DNA from: Myxococcota bacterium
GTDB taxonomy: Bacteria > Myxococcota_A > Polyangia > Nannocystales > Nannocystaceae
NCBI GenBank assembly: GCA_039028615.1
Contig: JBCCHT010000018.1
Location: 128,001-192,000, forward strand
Reading direction: 5' to 3'
DNA length: 64,000 nt
Shown here: positions 8,448 to 17,201 of the stretch, one piece after another
Layout: each line of letters begins with the position of its first letter
Position numbering within the stretch: position 1 is the first letter of the stretch
Program-made: the position numbers and the translations under genes
Notes under the pieces: model-generated
Database searches by the model: none
What the model saw: only the letters and a program-made list of their open reading frames with translations
Told to the model about the DNA's origin: nothing

Positions 8448-8691
8448 CGCGTACAGTCACGAACACGTAACGGTGCTCATCTCACGCGGCGGACTCCGCG
8501 TGTAACCTCGGCGGAGCATGCAACGTCCTCGACGTGGGCCGGCTTTCGTTCCAGTGGGCCCTTGGTGGGCTGCTTGACAAAGGGCAGACCCGTCGACAAT
8601 GCTCCGCTCTACCCTGCCCAACCACTCGAGGGGTTGGAAGGGCGCGGCGGACTCACCCCCGGACGTTCTCCCTAGTCCCCGCCTAGACATC

Positions 8692-10005
8692 ATGTCTGTC
8701 TCTCTCGACGTCGCCAAGGCTCATTGCTCCCCGGGCGATCTGTGGGTTCCTTCGGCCGATCTCGCGGAGCGTTATCCGCTGATTCGAGCCGCTACACGGG
8801 CTCTGACGGCACCTTTGGAGATCGAGGACTACGGTCTCCAGTCGATGCCCGACGCCAGTCCGCCCAAGTGGCACCTGGCCCATACGACCTGGTTTTTCGA
8901 GACCTTCGTGCTCGCGCGGCAGGTCCCGGACTATCAGCCCTTTCATCCGCGCTACGGGTATCTGTTCAACTCGTACTACGAGACGGTGGGTAGCTTTCAC
9001 CCCCGTCCGCAACGCGGACTGCTGACACGGCCGACTGTTGCCGAGGTGCAACGGTACCGGGACCACGTCGACCACCACATGCAGGCGCTGCTCGATCGAG
9101 GGATCACCGATCCGTCGGTCGCCGCCATCGTGGAGGTCGGCCTCAACCACGAGCAGCAGCACCAAGAGCTGATCCTCACCGATCTCAAGCACGGCCTCTC
9201 GTGCAATCCGCTGCGGCCCGTGTATCGCGACGTGAAGTCGGCCGCCGCCGCGGTCGATCCTTCGCTGCCGCTTTCGTGGCTCGAGCACCCGGGCGGCCTG
9301 GTCGACGTGGGGCACGGCGGCAACGGCTTCGGCTTCGACAACGAGTTCCCCCGCCACCGCGTGTACCTGCGCCCGTTCTCCATCGCTTCGCGACTGGTGA
9401 CCAACGGCGAGTACCTCGAGTTCATGGCCGACGGCGGCTACCGTCGCCCCGAGCTGTGGCTATCCGCGGGCTGGGACGTGGTGCGTCGGCAAGGCTGGCA
9501 GGCACCGCTGTACTGGGAGCGAGCCGCCGAGGGTGAGCCGTGGCACGTGTTCACGCTGGGCGGCATGCGACCGGTCGATCCCGCCGGACCGGCGTGCCAC
9601 CTGAGCCTGTACGAGGCCGATGCCTTCGCGAGCTGGAAGGGCGCCCGCTTGCCCACCGAGGCCGAGTGGGAGATCGCATGCAGCCCGCGTCCCGTACGGG
9701 GCAACTTCGTCGAGAGCGAGGCCTTTCACCCCGTGCCGCTGCGAGGGGCCACCGGTCCCGGTCCGCATCAGGCCTTCGGTGACGTGTGGGAGTGGACGGC
9801 GAGCGCCTACGCGCCCTATCCCGGCTTCCGCCCGCTCGACGGTTCGCTCGCCGAGTACAACGGCAAATTCATGTGCAACCAGCTCGTGCTACGAGGCGGC
9901 TCCTGTGCCACCCCGGCTTCGCACGCGCGCGCCAGCTACCGGAACTTCTTCCCGCCCGAAACTCGCTGGCAATTCTCGGGCCTTCGTCTGGCAAAAGACT
10001 CATGA
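8692..10005 (+). CDS. egtB: Ergothioneine biosynthesis sulfoxide synthase EgtB
   Basis: QSMPDASPPKWHLAHTTWFFETF, LFNSYYE, HEQQHQEL, FGE-like C-domain, RASYRNFFPPETRWQFSG. Confidence 0.95.
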   Translation: MSVSLDVAKAHCSPGDLWVPSADLAERYPLIRAATRALTAPLEIEDYGLQSMPDASPPKWHLAHTTWFFETFVLARQVPDYQPFHPRYGYLFNSYYETVGSFHPRPQRGLLTRPTVAEVQRYRDHVDHHMQALLDRGITDPSVAAIVEVGLNHEQQHQELILTDLKHGLSCNPLRPVYRDVKSAAAAVDPSLPLSWLEHPGGLVDVGHGGNGFGFDNEFPRHRVYLRPFSIASRLVTNGEYLEFMADGGYRRPELWLSAGWDVVRRQGWQAPLYWERAAEGEPWHVFTLGGMRPVDPAGPACHLSLYEADAFASWKGARLPTEAEWEIACSPRPVRGNFVESEAFHPVPLRGATGPGPHQAFGDVWEWTASAYAPYPGFRPLDGSLAEYNGKFMCNQLVLRGGSCATPASHARASYRNFFPPETRWQFSGLRLAKDS

Positions 10006-10991
10006 ACTCCGCAGCCGCCAAACTCGAGCCCCTCGACCTCGATCTCGTCGACAACGAGCCCGCCATCGAGCAGTTTCGGCACGACGTGCTGGATGCCCTG
10101 AGCCGCTCCTCGCAAAAGGAGCTGCCCACCCAGTACCTCTACGACGAGCGCGGATCGGCCCTGTTCGACCAGATCTGCGAGCTCCCCGAGTACTACCCCA
10201 CGCGCACCGAGATGGCGATCATGGAGCGCGACGCCGCGGCCATGGCCAAGGCCATCGGCCCCGGGGCGCTGGTCATCGAGTACGGCAGCGGGAGCAGCAT
10301 CAAGACCCGTCGCCTGCTCGAGCAGCTGCCCGACCCGGCCGGCTGCGTGCTGGTCGACATCTCGCGCGAGCACCTGCTGCGCTCGGCCGAGAACCTCGCC
10401 GCGCTCTTTCCCCATGTCGAGGTGCTGCCGGTCTGTGCCGACTTCACCCAGCCCTTCGACATCCCCACGCCGCGCGCCACGGTGCAGCGCCGCGTCGTCT
10501 ACTTCCCCGGCTCGACCATCGGCAACTTCCTGCCCAGCCACGCCTCGCGCCTGCTCGCGCAGATGGCCGACCAGGTCGGTCCCGACGGCGGCCTGCTGAT
10601 CGGCACCGATCTCCGCAAGGACCCGGCCGTGCTCGAGGCCGCCTACAACGACGCGCAGGGGGTTACCGCCGCGTTCAACCTGAACCTGCTGCGGCGCATC
10701 AATCGTGAGCTCGGGGCCGACTTCGACCTCGACGGCTTCGAGCACAAGGCCGTGTACGACGAAGAGCTCGGGCGCATCGAGATGCTGCTCATCAGCCGTC
10801 GCGTGCAGGTGGTGACCGTCGCCGGTCGGCGCTTCTCCTTCGATCGCGGCGAGACGATCCGAACCGAGTACTCGCACAAGTACGCGGTCGAGGGCTTCGC
10901 TCGCATGGCGAGCAAGGTCGGCTTCGTGCAGCCGCAGGTCTGGACCGACCCGAACGACTTGTTCGCGGTGCACCTGCTGCGCCGCGGCTGA
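10002..10991 (+). CDS. egtD: L-histidine N-alpha-methyltransferase EgtD
   Basis: YLYDERGSALFDQICELPEYYPTRTE, EYGSGSSIKT, GSTIGNF, AYNDAQGVTAAFNLN, TEYSHKY; ATGA overlap with egtB. Confidence 0.96.
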   Translation: MNSAAAKLEPLDLDLVDNEPAIEQFRHDVLDALSRSSQKELPTQYLYDERGSALFDQICELPEYYPTRTEMAIMERDAAAMAKAIGPGALVIEYGSGSSIKTRRLLEQLPDPAGCVLVDISREHLLRSAENLAALFPHVEVLPVCADFTQPFDIPTPRATVQRRVVYFPGSTIGNFLPSHASRLLAQMADQVGPDGGLLIGTDLRKDPAVLEAAYNDAQGVTAAFNLNLLRRINRELGADFDLDGFEHKAVYDEELGRIEMLLISRRVQVVTVAGRRFSFDRGETIRTEYSHKYAVEGFARMASKVGFVQPQVWTDPNDLFAVHLLRRG

Positions 10992-11014: not shown

Positions 11015-11659
11015 TTAGCCGGCCGCGTTGGCTCGCAGCGCGGACGCGATCTCGATGAGCTCATCGGGATCGTGGCGCTTGCGGTAGCCGTCGAGGAACA
11101 CCTTGGCTCGGATCACCCCGTCGGCGTCGAGCACCAGCGTGCCCGGGTGCGGGATCTCGTTCTCTCCGTCTTCCAGACCGTAGGCGCGGATGGTGGCGCT
11201 ACCCTCGTCGGAGAGCAGGGGAAAGCCGATGTCCTTCATCTCGGAGAAGTCGGCCAGGGTCTCGACCGGGTCGTAGCTCACCGCGACGAGGGTGATGCCG
11301 GCGGCCTCGAGGCGGGGCAGGGCGTCGTGCAGCTTGACCAGCTGCCGTTTGCAGAAGGGTCACCAGTCGGCCGAGCGATAGAACACGATGGCGACGAGGC
11401 GGTCCTTGCCCAGCCACTCGTCGAGGCTGCGGGTCTTGCCGCTCTGGTCGGCCAAGGAAAACGCGGGAGCACGCTCGCCCACCGCGACGCCGGGGCCCTC
11501 GGTGGGGACGGGGGCGGCGGGAGTGCCGGCCGCCGCTTCGTCGTCCTGGCTTTGAACGCCGTTCGGAGAGGCAGACGCGGGAGAGCCCGCGGCGGAGGGC
11601 GGTGACGAGCAGGCGCCCAGGGCGAGGGCGAGGAGAGTCGGCGGGAGAAGTAGGCGCAT
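11015..11659 (-). CDS. AhpC/TSA (redoxin, peroxiredoxin-like) lipoprotein selenoprotein; UGA at 11362-11360 read as Sec (U100-P-F-C103)
   Basis: Track ORFs 11360..11677 and 11015..11281 are in the same frame and join across one TGA: GERAPAFSLADQSG...IVFYRSADW-U-PFCKRQL...LVAVSYD...FPLLSD...PHPGTLVLDADGVIR; lipobox LGAC. Confidence 0.9.
11329..11362 (-). promoter_or_regulatory. Candidate bacterial SECIS hairpin
   Basis: mRNA reads UGA-CCCUUCUGCAAACG-GCAGCU-GGUCA-AGCUGC: a 6-bp stem whose loop starts with GG, 20 nt after the UGA. Confidence 0.7.
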
Positions 11660-13427: not shown

Positions 13428-14831
13428 CTACGCGAGCAGCTGCGGCAGCGGATCCTTGGGCAGCGAGGGGTCGCCGAAGTCGTCGAGGTCGCCCCCGGAC
13501 GCGTTGCGCAGGCCCGCCGCGGTACCGATCATGTTGAGCAGCTGGCAGTGCGTGCCGACGCCGTCGGCCCGCACGTACTGCCCGGTGCGGAAGTACTCGT
13601 TGGCCGAGCCGCCCAGGATGTAGGGCAGGTTGAGCGACGAGTGGCTGGGACCCTGCGACTGGTCGTTGTGCCACACGGCCACGCCCGCATCGAGCAGCCG
13701 ACCCTGCGGCAAGGGGTAGTTGGCCAGGCGCTCCATGAGGTAGCGGAAGGTCTGGGCGAACTGCCGGTCGACCATCGAATGCAGCAGGTCGGAGTCGGGA
13801 ATGATCGCTCCGTCGGCACCGTGCGACTCTCGGCGGTGCGAGATGTAGTGGTAGTTCTCCATCGCCTCGCCCGTGTCGAGGTTGCGATAGCGCGTGGTGC
13901 CGTCGTTGCCGTTGCCGATCTGGATCGACACCGAGCGGGTATAGCCACAGGCCACGGAGAGCACCGCGACGTCGATGTGGGCTCGCACGGCGGCGAGCAC
14001 TTGGTCGCCGTCGGTGCTCTCGTAGCCCGCCGCGGCTCCGTCGAGCGCAGCCTCTTCGTCGGCGGTGAGCATGCATGACAGCGTGCCCTCGAGGTCGCGA
14101 ATGGCCGAGCGGTGGAGCTCGAGCCGGTCGAGGTCGTTGGCCGACAGCCGGGGGTTGGCCATGAGCGCGGCCATCTGCTCGCGGACGAGGTCGTTGACGC
14201 TCTGGCGACGCTCGACCAGCATGTCGCTCAGGCTCTCGCCGTCGATGCCCGTGACCAGCGCGTAGGCGTTGACCGGGTTGTGCAGCGGAGCACGGCGGTC
14301 GCCCGCGGCCCGGTAGGACTGGCACGCGCCGCCCATCCAGCCCGCGTTGAGGCCGGCGTACAGGAACAGCGACTCGCGCCCGTCGGGGTTGAGCTCGCGA
14401 CCGATGCGGTTGTCGATGGACTCGCCGGCCGCGTCGGCCTCACCACCCGAGCCGATGACGGTGGGACCCATCGCGGTCAGGCCTTGCAGCACGCCGCGAG
14501 CATGGCCGTCACCGTAGTCGAAGGGCGCCGCGTCGACCCCGACGGCGAGGACGTCGTTGAGGTAGCCGTCGAGTTCTTCGAGGGTTCGACCGGCGACGCT
14601 CTGCGGGCTGAGCAAGCCCTCGGAGCTGGGCCAGAAGCGCTCCGGCTCGTCACCGACGTCGGTGCTCTGCGCGGACGCGACCCCGTTGGCCTGCCGCATG
14701 AAAATGGCAAAGGGCTGCACCAGGGCCTCGCCCGCAGTCGCTTCCTTGGCCGATCGCAGCCCCTCCAGGAAGGGGAGCGAAAGAGAGAGGCCTCCAAGGC
14801 CCTTGAGGACCGTTCGACGATGCATCTTCAT
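13428..14831 (-). CDS. DUF1552 (HXXSHH-type) Tat-exported protein
   Basis: RRTVLKGLGG...LPFLE Tat-like N-terminus; DLDRLELHRSAIRDLE; YHYISH; LPYILGGS; coupled to the DUF1592 gene. Confidence 0.88.
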   Translation of the reverse strand: MKMHRRTVLKGLGGLSLSLPFLEGLRSAKEATAGEALVQPFAIFMRQANGVASAQSTDVGDEPERFWPSSEGLLSPQSVAGRTLEELDGYLNDVLAVGVDAAPFDYGDGHARGVLQGLTAMGPTVIGSGGEADAAGESIDNRIGRELNPDGRESLFLYAGLNAGWMGGACQSYRAAGDRRAPLHNPVNAYALVTGIDGESLSDMLVERRQSVNDLVREQMAALMANPRLSANDLDRLELHRSAIRDLEGTLSCMLTADEEAALDGAAAGYESTDGDQVLAAVRAHIDVAVLSVACGYTRSVSIQIGNGNDGTTRYRNLDTGEAMENYHYISHRRESHGADGAIIPDSDLLHSMVDRQFAQTFRYLMERLANYPLPQGRLLDAGVAVWHNDQSQGPSHSSLNLPYILGGSANEYFRTGQYVRADGVGTHCQLLNMIGTAAGLRNASGGDLDDFGDPSLPKDPLPQLLA

Positions 14832-16552
14832 TACTGCATCTCCTCTGTGGAGCGGGTGAGGAAGGGGCGGGAGGTGGCGAACTCGACCAGCAGTTCCTTG
14901 ACGCTGGCGTCTTCGACCGACGCGGTGGCCAAGCGATCGACCAGCGCCTCGTCGAGGTCATCGTAGGGTCGGCCCATCGTGTATTCCGTCCAGTGTTCGA
15001 GATAGCACTGGTGGACTTGCTCGTCGGTGGCCATGGCTTCGGCCAGGTCGACGGCGTTGCTGACCTCGACGGCGCCGCTGGCCAGCGCCACCGTGGCGCT
15101 GGCGTCGACGGTCTGCCCGTTGTCCTCGGTGCGGAAGGCTCCGGTCGAGTCGTAGTTCTCGTAGGGGAAGCCGAAGGGGTTGATGAGCGGCTTGTGACAG
15201 CCCAGGCACTCGGTGCCGGGCGCCTCGGTGTGGGCGATGACCGTCTCGCGGTTGGTCGCATCGGGGTCACCCTCGGGCACGGGGGGGACCGTGTCGGGGG
15301 GCGCGGCGATGGAGTGACACGCGATGTGCCGCGCGAGGTAGGCCCCGCGGTGAATCGGGTCGGGGTGGACCGAGGTCGCGTTGGCGACGAGGAACCCGAT
15401 CTGGGTGAACAGGCCGCGGCGCTCGTTGGGATCGAGGTCGACGCGGGTGAACTCATCGCCGAAGTCTCCGCTCAACCCGTAGATCGCAGCGAGGTCCGCG
15501 TTGACGTAGGTCTCGGTGGAGGTCAGCAGGTCACCCCACGAGCCGTCGTTGTCGAAGACGGTGTGGGCGAGGAACAGGTCGTGCTCTTGCACCGCGAGGT
15601 CGCCGAGGTTCTCGGGCGCATCGGGGTAGAAGGCGGGCGACGGCGCGGTCTGCTGGAACTTCTCGACCTCGAGCAGGGTGTGGTGGAACTTCTGCACCAC
15701 CATATGGGCCCGGGGGTTCTCGAGCAGGCGACGGGCTTGCTCTTGCACGCGGTCGGGATCTTCGAGCTCGCCCGCCTCGGCCAGATCGAGCAGTTCGTCG
15801 TCGGGCATGGTGTCGAGCAGGAAGTAGGAGATCCGCGACGCGACCTCCCAGGAGTTCAGCGGGATGACGCCGTCGACGATCTCCTCGCTGGTCTCGGACC
15901 GGTACAGGAAGTTGGGCGACTGGAGGATGGCCTCGAGTACGAGTCGGACGCCCGCGGCGAAGCCCGTGGTCTCTTCGTAGAGCTCGGGGCCGCGGTTGAA
16001 CAGCTCGACGTACTGGGTCGCTTCGGCGTCGGTCAGGGGGCGACGGAAGGCGCGGCGACCAAAGTTGCGGATGAACTCCGCCGCGCGGGTCGTCTCGTCG
16101 CCCGTATCCGGAGCGATGAACTCGAGGATGCTGGGGTCGGAGGCCGCGATCTCGGCCATATCGACCGCCGCGCGCTGATACCCGGACCACAACGCCTCGT
16201 CGACCTCGAGCGAAGTCGCGTTGTTGTCGAACAGGAACCCGCCCTCACGGGCATCCGCCCGGAAGTCGGCCGACAAACCCGAGGGCTCGTCGAGGTCGAA
16301 TAGATCTTGGACCGTGTTCTCCCACTGCACGTGGGTCAGCCGGAAGAACCGCGTGGTGGGAACCGGAAGCTCCTCCTCGGGGCCGAGCCCATCGGGGCCC
16401 TCGCCGTCGTCGTCACCACCATCGTCGGCGCCACCCTCACCGCCCGAAGCGACGCCGCCGTTCAACTCTTGGATCCCCGTATAGCAGCCGGTACTCACCC
16501 CTAGGGCCAGTACTAGCGCTGGGCCGATCGCGTACTTGTCACGCTTTGCCAT
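14831..16552 (-). CDS. DUF1587/1595/1592/1588/1585 multidomain lipoprotein
   Basis: RLTHVQWENTVQDL, FGRRAFRRPL, LQSPNFLYR, EVASRISYFL..MPDDEL, PIHRG, CLGCH haem-binding motif. Confidence 0.9.
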   Translation of the reverse strand: MAKRDKYAIGPALVLALGVSTGCYTGIQELNGGVASGGEGGADDGGDDDGEGPDGLGPEEELPVPTTRFFRLTHVQWENTVQDLFDLDEPSGLSADFRADAREGGFLFDNNATSLEVDEALWSGYQRAAVDMAEIAASDPSILEFIAPDTGDETTRAAEFIRNFGRRAFRRPLTDAEATQYVELFNRGPELYEETTGFAAGVRLVLEAILQSPNFLYRSETSEEIVDGVIPLNSWEVASRISYFLLDTMPDDELLDLAEAGELEDPDRVQEQARRLLENPRAHMVVQKFHHTLLEVEKFQQTAPSPAFYPDAPENLGDLAVQEHDLFLAHTVFDNDGSWGDLLTSTETYVNADLAAIYGLSGDFGDEFTRVDLDPNERRGLFTQIGFLVANATSVHPDPIHRGAYLARHIACHSIAAPPDTVPPVPEGDPDATNRETVIAHTEAPGTECLGCHKPLINPFGFPYENYDSTGAFRTEDNGQTVDASATVALASGAVEVSNAVDLAEAMATDEQVHQCYLEHWTEYTMGRPYDDLDEALVDRLATASVEDASVKELLVEFATSRPFLTRSTEEMQ

Positions 16553-17201
16553 TGTCACCCGTGCCCAATAGTTCCGACGAACAGCCCTTTTGTCCCGGGC
16601 AATTCCTAAGTGATTCCATGATTCAACCCGATTTCTTGGGGCTATGACTTACGTTCCGAACGAGGCCCGAATTGGGCTGTAGTGCCAGTGGGATCGGCCA
16701 CCAACCGATCCCGTAGATCGCCCTGAAACACCCGTTCCGCGGGCGTTTTTTCGGGGGTTTGCAGACGACGGGAGCAAAGATTTTGGGGGGCCGCGACCCC
16801 CCTACTTCGGCCCATCGGATGGGGTGGCAATCTGCCACTGATGATCAGAGGTGGGGAGCCTCGCCCCAGTCGATCTTCACACTGTCGATTTCGCAGTCCG
16901 AAACGCCCTGCGGGGACCGGGGTCGGTCGCCGAAACGGCTCCCGACGGCAGTCGAACTCGGACTCGTCCCGCCGCGTGGGGACGGCGGGGGTGCCCCGTG
17001 GATGCGCCCGCGTGATCGTAGCCAGGGTGTTAGCACGCGATCCCTCGCGCGCTCGCATTACGGTGTTCGCCGCGCCGTGATCCATCGCGTTGCCGCAGGG
17101 GTTGCAAAGGAGCCGACGCCCAACCATGCGATGATCGACGCCTTATGTTGACTTACTTTGGTTCGATCGTCCCCGTGGTCCAACGCCTCCGTCCTGGGGC
17201 C

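Follow-up and report, generated by a model that had tools for sequence, protein, structure and literature searches.

Can a stop codon in the middle of a redoxin-like reading frame encode selenocysteine (Sec), and what would the resulting protein do? A locus in a window of 64,000 nucleotides from a Myxococcota bacterium (contig JBCCHT010000018.1, positions 128,001 to 192,000) raises this question. The original prediction, made from the sequence, had proposed a lipid-anchored, peroxiredoxin-like selenoprotein with a UxxC motif and a bacterial SECIS hairpin. Our analysis makes it very likely that the mid-gene stop codon encodes active-site Sec in a disulfide-exchange protein that is predicted to be exported and anchored to the membrane, and whose gene we call RSADW after its active-site motif.

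Results

A single in-frame TGA divides a redoxin gene

The gene is encoded on the minus strand, a detail absent from the original prediction, and has the following features.

11015..11659, minus strand: predicted selenoprotein gene, 214 aa, Sec at residue 100; ATG at 11659, TAA at 11017-11015
11677, minus strand: alternative in-frame GTG start, 6 codons before the ATG at 11659
11609..11659, minus strand: predicted lipoprotein signal peptide, residues 1-17; lipobox LGAC by motif inspection
11611-11609, minus strand: lipobox Cys17
11492..11608, minus strand: low-complexity Ala/Pro/Ser linker, residues 18-56; A, P or S at 24 of 39 residues
11105..11482, minus strand: redoxin domain (AhpC/TSA, PF00578), residues 60-185; Pfam 105.8 bits
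11362-11360, minus strand: in-frame TGA, predicted Sec100, first position of U-P-F-C
11351..11353, minus strand: Cys103, predicted resolving cysteine, aligned with the peroxidatic Cys of true peroxiredoxins
11329..11345, minus strand: predicted bacterial SECIS hairpin, 6-bp stem, within the R-Q-L-V-K-L-H codons
11339-11335, minus strand: SECIS loop GGUCA, 20 nt from the UGA to the loop
11144..11146, minus strand: Pro172, at the position of the peroxiredoxin (Prx) catalytic Arg; kept in 95% of 281 family rows

The 214-codon frame contains a single recoded codon, the TGA at residue 100, in the context VFYRSADW-U-PFCKRQLVKL. As first described, the TGA falls at the first Cys position of a CxxC motif (FYRSADW-TGA-PFC), with Cys103 downstream, and the redoxin domain continues intact for 114 residues beyond it; the AhpC-TSA match (PF00578, 105.8 bits against a cut-off of 26) runs across the TGA. 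The GC content at third codon positions was 0.91 both before (codons 56-99) and after (codons 101-214) this codon, and the gene headed the 11 candidates of a motif-restricted scan of the whole genome for in-frame TGAs flanked on either side by coding-like codon use. The expectation that annotation pipelines would split the gene also held, with a plain table-11 listing giving a 105-aa frame that ends at the TGA and an 88-aa frame behind it. No sigma-70 promoter and no minus-strand terminator were found for the gene (11659-11015, minus strand).

The host genome encodes a complete Sec machinery

The host genome (G000; 12.27 Mb, 68% GC, 96.7% complete) gave 65 MYXO-CTERM matches, against 0 in 14 control genomes, which points to a myxobacterium. 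The sequencing run that matched best carries a marine metagenome label and may be where this DNA came from. A search for selA, selB, selC and selD had been proposed as a check, and all four were present above their curated cut-offs: selA at 402.7 bits (cut-off 267.9), selB at 280.6 (242.25), selD at 385.4 (125) and the tRNA-Sec gene selC at 68.6 (47). Among the other genomes tested, selA exceeded its cut-off in both of the 2 with a TGA form of the gene and in none of the 3 with a Cys form.

At least six UxxC redoxin-type genes, RSADW included, are encoded in G000. The five others, each with an in-frame TGA and a short hairpin candidate, lie at C42:70173(+), C6:131401(-), C1:338912(-), C50:49269(+) and C14:16632(+); those on C6 and C42 have an N-terminal hydrophobic stretch ending in Cys, and those on C1 and C50 have long upstream extensions. 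Two CxxU candidates, at C5:96454(-) and C2:229521(-), each with a hairpin candidate, are presumably AhpD-like. A DsbA/DsbG-like gene at C68:22651-23361(+) matches NF041057, a model listed as Rcas_1661_fam_Se, below its cut-off and contains one internal TGA.

The TGA codon is conserved in genomes and metagenomes

The closest gene was found in a genome of the same genus (G002); it is 60% identical and keeps both the TGA and a lipobox, in this case LAAC. From a search of 61 genomes, G000 included, 30 loci were taken, of which 23 have TGA, 5 a Cys codon and 2 Thr at the site, most of these loci being of a sister FYRGxW type and not orthologues. With a pattern open to TGA, TGC and TGT, matches were obtained in 3 of 73 genomes of the family and 5 of 301 of the phylum (G000 counted in both), all with TGA; the distribution of the gene is thus patchy. 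A TGA-only pattern, RSADW-TGA-P(F/Y)CK, retrieved at least 120 metagenome stretches. Named genomes of Proteobacteria, Acidobacteria and Opitutae contributed 80 Cys homologues, 69 of them with the RSADW motif. Homologues of both kinds, with Cys and with TGA, were therefore found, and the UGA aligns with the conserved Cys of the homologues. The outcome named in advance as speaking against recoding was a genome lacking Sec machinery together with homologues that have only TGC or TGT; the machinery is complete, and G002 has TGA.

A tree of 281 family rows and 8 outgroup rows, from which rows with fewer than 40 residues upstream or 85 downstream, duplicates and one broken copy were omitted, required 13 parsimony changes between Sec and Cys. 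RSADW grouped with its G002 homologue (support 0.94). Because the family node had a support of 0.19 and the sampling was biased by the search patterns, we make no claim on the direction of Sec/Cys change or on a donor.

Several family members depart from the common form. The copy omitted from the tree (G034 C70:5467-5715; L021, L254) has the RSADW-TGA motif and an intact hairpin and is broken about 26 codons after the TGA, by either a deletion or a misassembly; another frame after the break reads like the end of what we take to be a rhodanese-type protein. A sister-type homologue (L035, G044 C154:63636-64124) has two TGA codons in the motif, giving U-P-F-U. A divergent RSADW-TGA gene (L256, G109 C384) begins with a lipobox-like N-terminus; its hairpin differs, and its C-terminal extension is shorter and ends in C-x4-C. 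An extra N-terminal domain of about 100 residues, with a Cys near its start, precedes the redoxin domain in the TGA forms L134, L146, L168, L178, L183, L191, L200 and L208, among others.

The SECIS hairpin is under selection in the TGA forms of the family

The predicted hairpin, GCAGCU-GGUCA-AGCUGC, was located at 11345-11329 with the claimed spacing of 20 nt between UGA and loop. Its spacing, GGUCA loop, 6-bp stem and folding energy of -11.9 kcal/mol lie within the published bSECIS consensus (loop of 3-9 nt with G in the first two places, stem of 4-16 bp, spacing of 16-37 nt, MFE <= -7.5; PMC13188914), a loose test for a single GC-rich gene. Indeed, when the peptide was recoded synonymously, 140 of 600 versions passed a loose bSECIS test, as did 156 of 400 random TGAs in the window. 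The z-score was -1.08, with 31 of 200 shuffles folding equally well, and folds that begin at the UGA favour another structure, in which UGACC pairs with the loop. Significance of the hairpin from this gene alone was rejected, and a family test was used instead.

Once duplicates and short reads had been dropped, our bSECIS test was passed by 107 of 114 distinct TGA forms, compared with 9 of 68 Cys forms; these counts overstate independence, since the two sets come from different collections with different selection patterns and contain related members. The difference persisted where the locus GC was at least 55% (81 of 85 TGA forms versus 8 of 51 Cys forms), and Cys forms sharing the QLVxL peptide passed in only 4 of 14 cases. 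The stem position was identical across all TGA forms of the family, and loop bases +22/+23 were GU in 114 of 114. The stem pairs covaried: +18/+28 is G-C in 95 and A-U in 17 of the 114 forms (12 parsimony changes on the protein tree), +19/+27 is C-G in 108 and U-A in 6 (4 changes), and +15/+31 is G-C in 84, C-G in 20 and C-C in 5 (11 changes). Changes at the first two of these pairs are synonymous on both sides, and Cys forms displayed no coupling at these stem pairs. Fisher p-values for the coupling ignore relatedness and were not relied on. Together, our bSECIS test and the covariation demonstrate that the hairpin is under selection in the TGA forms, and the SECIS check suggested with the original prediction is answered at the level of the family only, not by the single gene.

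Sec is the favoured reading of the TGA

From these sequence comparisons, we regard recoding of the TGA at residue 100 as Sec as close to certain. A reading of UGA as Cys or Trp, by a variant code or leaky readthrough, is very improbable. Cys would restore the CPFC site of the family, but TGA terminates the adjacent egtD (10989-10991), the sole tRNA with a TCA anticodon among the ARAGORN calls listed is tRNA-SeC, in agreement with Rfam, and the hairpin fits the bSECIS consensus (PMC13188914) and is specific to TGA forms. It is hardly credible that the TGA is a true stop, created by a nonsense mutation or by an error in assembly, with the gene reduced to a pseudogene or a pair of fragments: this reading can draw on the non-significance of the hairpin taken alone, on the G034 copy, whose break means that decayed copies exist, and on the Cys found in 80 of 80 genome matches, but conservation largely refutes it, the same TGA being shared with G002, with four further genomes from the phylum and with at least 120 stretches of metagenome sequence.

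The 80 of 80 Cys matches do not count against Sec: the scan was run with the peptide ADWCPFCK, which itself contains Cys, so the bias is built in. Sequencing runs also spoke against a true stop, within limits. A contig of the possible source run matches with zero differences and is not independent; weak support came from a depth-2 contig in an RNA run of another study, with 11 differences per 150 nt and none listed at the TGA or stem. The X2 contig ends too close to the TGA for differences there to be listed. RNA run X3 gave two 151-nt contigs of depth 2 with about 92% similarity; they come from a relative, may derive from DNA and were not counted as transcription.

The protein has a peroxiredoxin-like fold and a probable thioredoxin-type active site

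The protein contains the R-S-A-D-W-[U/C]-P-[F/Y]-C-K-x-Q-L motif and the SYD, LLSD and IP-x-PG blocks of the RSADW subfamily; two family residues differ, with Asp164 in place of Asn and Glu168 in place of Gly. None of the 13 families matched in the NCBIfam scan (ResA, TlpA, DsbE, SelL-related and PrxU types) reached its curated cut-off, the BCP model scoring 57.9 against 140, and no curated NCBIfam model was found for the RSADW subfamily. An AlphaFold2 single-sequence model of the domain, of modest confidence (mean pLDDT 66.7), matched Prx, BCP and ResA folds. The best sequence matches among solved structures were BCP/PrxQ and AhpE peroxiredoxins (PDB 2cx3, 1xvw; E 2e-12 to 5e-11), and the overall fold is common to them and the RSADW protein (TM about 0.7-0.77). 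These peroxiredoxins have the peroxidatic Pro, Thr/Ser and Arg, whereas in the RSADW protein the corresponding places are filled by Arg95, Sec100 and Pro172, and Cys103 aligns with the peroxidatic Cys. The PxxxTxxC motif and the Arg are described as conserved across peroxiredoxins (PMC3322552), and because both are missing we classify the protein, on its sequence, as not a true peroxiredoxin. The label peroxiredoxin-like thus applies to the fold alone. From its position, Pro172 would be the cis-Pro of the thioredoxin fold. A UxxC site combined with a Pro at this place corresponds to the active-site layout of thioredoxin-type thiol-disulfide oxidoreductases.

These results bear on the possibility that the protein is an exported selenium-dependent peroxidase, in which H2O2 or lipid hydroperoxides at the membrane would be attacked directly by Sec100, with Cys103 resolving the intermediate. 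A selenol is more reactive to peroxides than a thiol, the closest solved sequences and folds are the BCP/AhpE peroxiredoxins, and Cys homologues are named "peroxiredoxin family protein" in databases. Periplasmic peroxide removal has a precedent in PprX (PMC3322552). We nevertheless consider this function unlikely: the PxxxTxxC and Arg described as absolutely conserved in peroxiredoxins are absent, Sec occupies the Thr position and not the peroxidatic one, many homologues function with Cys in the same frame, and no peroxidase activity was detected for PrxL, in which these residues are likewise missing (PMC3322552).

The family is predicted to be exported and linked to the DsbD branch

Export and lipid anchoring are predictions. 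A lipoprotein signal has a positive N-terminus, a hydrophobic core and a lipobox with Cys; R2, the hydrophobic residues 9-14 and the L-G-A-C motif ending in Cys17 fit this rule by motif inspection, and a Ser/Pro/Ala-rich linker follows. With the LAAC lipobox of the G002 homologue (L020), this motif makes a lipid anchor a good prospect. Where the N-terminus was usable, a hydrophobic stretch was present there in 85 of 90 TGA forms and 64 of 66 Cys forms; by a strict rule, a lipobox was scored in 3 of these 90 and 0 of these 66, respectively.

Among complete sequences, a C-terminal extension was found in 43 of 52 TGA forms and 20 of 68 Cys forms. It contained C-x4-C in all 63 and scored as DsbD_N (PF11412) in both of the 2 that were scanned, which links the family with the envelope's reducing branch. 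The RSADW protein has no C-terminal DsbD_N, its TAA lying 114 codons past the UGA, and PF11412 was not found in the 96.7%-complete G000 genome; the electron relay must therefore be unlike the one in the fused relatives. G000 has a single DsbD_TM match (C13:186791-187414(-); L252:892-2211), in a protein with a transmembrane domain and a thioredoxin domain (WCLPC), without DsbD_N. This DsbD protein adjoins a glutaredoxin-domain protein. The idea that DsbD_N was fused to the redoxin to replace one missing from the host DsbD was rejected, since 5 of 5 long-form genomes tested had a stronger DsbD_N match directly upstream of the DsbD_TM match.

An analogous arrangement is described in Caulobacter, where the exported proteins TlpA, PprX and PrxL are held in the reduced state by the DsbD-class carrier ScsB and no peroxidase activity could be detected for PrxL (PMC3322552). 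By that description, all three resemble the RSADW protein as exported thioredoxin-fold proteins reduced via a DsbD-class carrier, and PrxL, like the RSADW protein, resembles peroxiredoxins yet lacks their catalytic residues. Unlike the RSADW protein, they use Cys and not Sec, the two Cys of PrxL lie far apart, and PprX is a true PrxQ (PMC3322552). PrxL is an analogy only, since it belongs to a different subgroup, cd02969 (PMC3322552).

The gene neighbourhood is lineage-specific

In the window, egtB (574.5 bits) and egtD (389.1 bits) for ergothioneine synthesis occupy 8599-10991 on the plus strand, ending 23 nt from the stop of the RSADW gene, with which they are convergent. A link to egtB-egtD or to selenoneine synthesis was rejected: the neighbour exceeded the EgtB cut-off of 360 and scored 362.5 with the SenA model, below its cut-off of 420, the genes are convergent, and synteny is lacking in G002, whose homologue shares no flanking genes with the RSADW locus. 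Two large minus-strand ORFs at 13428-16558, the upstream one with a lipobox-like start, are presumably of the DUF1592/DUF1552-like type, which commonly occurs in pairs in myxobacteria. The neighbourhood offers no partner for the RSADW protein: across 141 family loci the neighbours were lineage-specific, and no dsbD-type cluster stood among their largest recurring groups. An MNIO gene adjoins L056, L057, L062, L065, L067, L068, L072, L106, L123 and L197; the L062 neighbour scores as BufB (357 bits against 310), and several of these loci also have an HvfC-like gene and a small Cys-repeat precursor.

Such neighbourhoods could suggest an exported selenoprotein on the oxidising or metal side, either a DsbA-like disulfide donor or a thiol/selenol ligand in defence against copper or another metal. 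Some family members have as neighbours an ECF sigma gene or, at 10 of 141 loci and mostly in related Acidobacteriaceae, a bufferin-type MNIO cluster, and a P-F or P-Y dipeptide may be closer to the sites of DsbA, DsbG and glutaredoxin than to the G-P of thioredoxin. This role seems quite unlikely, as the DsbD_N fusion points to the reducing branch, these neighbourhoods are lineage-specific and absent at this locus, and no DsbA-type match was obtained in the NCBIfam and Pfam scans.

Discussion

A proposed lipid-anchored envelope reductase or isomerase

We favour a role as a lipid-anchored, thioredoxin-type reductase or isomerase of the envelope, with Sec100 as nucleophile, Cys103 as resolving residue and DsbD as electron source, because of the UxxC/Pro site, the DsbD_N fusions in the family, the DsbD of the genome and the precedent of Caulobacter ScsB. 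SelB would bind the GGUCA hairpin and deliver Sec-tRNA, and the protein would be exported, lipidated at Cys17 and held on its flexible linker. Sec100 would then attack a substrate disulfide, or an oxidised Cys, and Cys103 would resolve the intermediate, giving a selenenyl-sulfide. The U-P-F-C site would in this way reduce or rearrange envelope disulfides, and electrons would return from cytoplasmic thioredoxin through the DsbD-type membrane carrier of the genome. Taken as a whole, we consider this mechanism reasonably probable.

A broader reading is tentative and rather doubtful. A myxobacterial lineage may have turned an RSADW selenoredoxin that is usually exported by a signal peptide into a single-domain lipoprotein, re-reduced directly by an alpha-less DsbD, one without the DsbD-alpha domain. 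It would be one of at least six UxxC genes forming a selenium-based envelope reducing network in a large-genome marine myxobacterium, against a review statement that aerobic bacteria rarely retain selenoproteins.

A further member of a known selenoprotein subfamily

The gene adds a member to a subfamily that has been known, as a predicted selenoprotein, since 2006. A Solibacter usitatus selenoprotein with VFYRSADW-U-PYCKTQLVEL and a C-terminal extension was reported in that year (Zhang et al. 2006; PMC1794560, supplementary file 4). Compared by eye, the two proteins have in common the active-site string VFYRSADW-U-P-Y/F-CK-x-QLV-x-L with the same Sec position, a hydrophobic leader and the SYD, LLSD and IP-x-PG blocks; the Solibacter protein has no lipobox Cys and its C-terminal extension ends in YQAC-x4-C, whereas the RSADW protein is single-domain, with a lipobox and a 39-residue linker (PMC1794560). 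Because the same active-site motif was published in 2006, the selenoprotein call is fairly ordinary.

A "Prx-like thiol:disulfide oxidoreductase" family (PF00578, UxxC/UxxU) is listed among selenoprotein families as predicted only (PMC13188914, PMC9312934), and "Prx-like 1" comprised 225 sequences of the GOS metagenomes (PMC2398784). By its listed features, this family (exemplar WP_010940744.1) has PF00578, UxxC, Cys homologues and a bSECIS in common with RSADW, which scores 105.8 bits for PF00578 (cut-off 26) and carries U100-P-F-C103. The words "lipoprotein", "signal peptide" and "periplasm" do not occur in the review passages on the Prx-like family (PMC13188914, PMC9312934). A Prx-like (U/CxxC) domain fused with Pfam11412 was described from GOS metagenomes in 2021 (PMC9402790); by that description it has the domain pair of the long RSADW members, including DsbD_N, whereas the gene studied here has no fused domain. 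Exported and lipid-anchored selenoproteins have precedents in SaoB, which has a signal sequence, and in the SaoX lipoprotein, in which a TGA is aligned to Cys (bioRxiv 10.1101/2022.07.06.499078).

In mainly open literature and the supplements of one paper, we found no paper on the single-domain lipoprotein form or on myxobacterial members. Searches with RSADW-type motif strings gave no relevant main-text match; the precedent was located in supplementary material, and closer sequences may exist in that of other papers. The differences from the known subfamily, namely the lipobox, the linker and the missing DsbD_N domain, are small, and the finding is unlikely to surprise a selenoprotein specialist. 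The original prediction was correct on Sec and on the hairpin, and probably so on the lipid anchor.

The annotation is corrected to one 214-aa protein instead of 105-aa and 88-aa fragments under table 11. Part of why the gene matters is that its subfamily lacks a curated NCBIfam model and is listed as predicted only. The very short SECIS, with its clear covariation, is convenient for testing what a myxobacterial SelB recognises, and natural Sec/Cys pairs at about 50-56% identity offer a convenient way of testing the benefit of Sec in the oxidising environment of the envelope.
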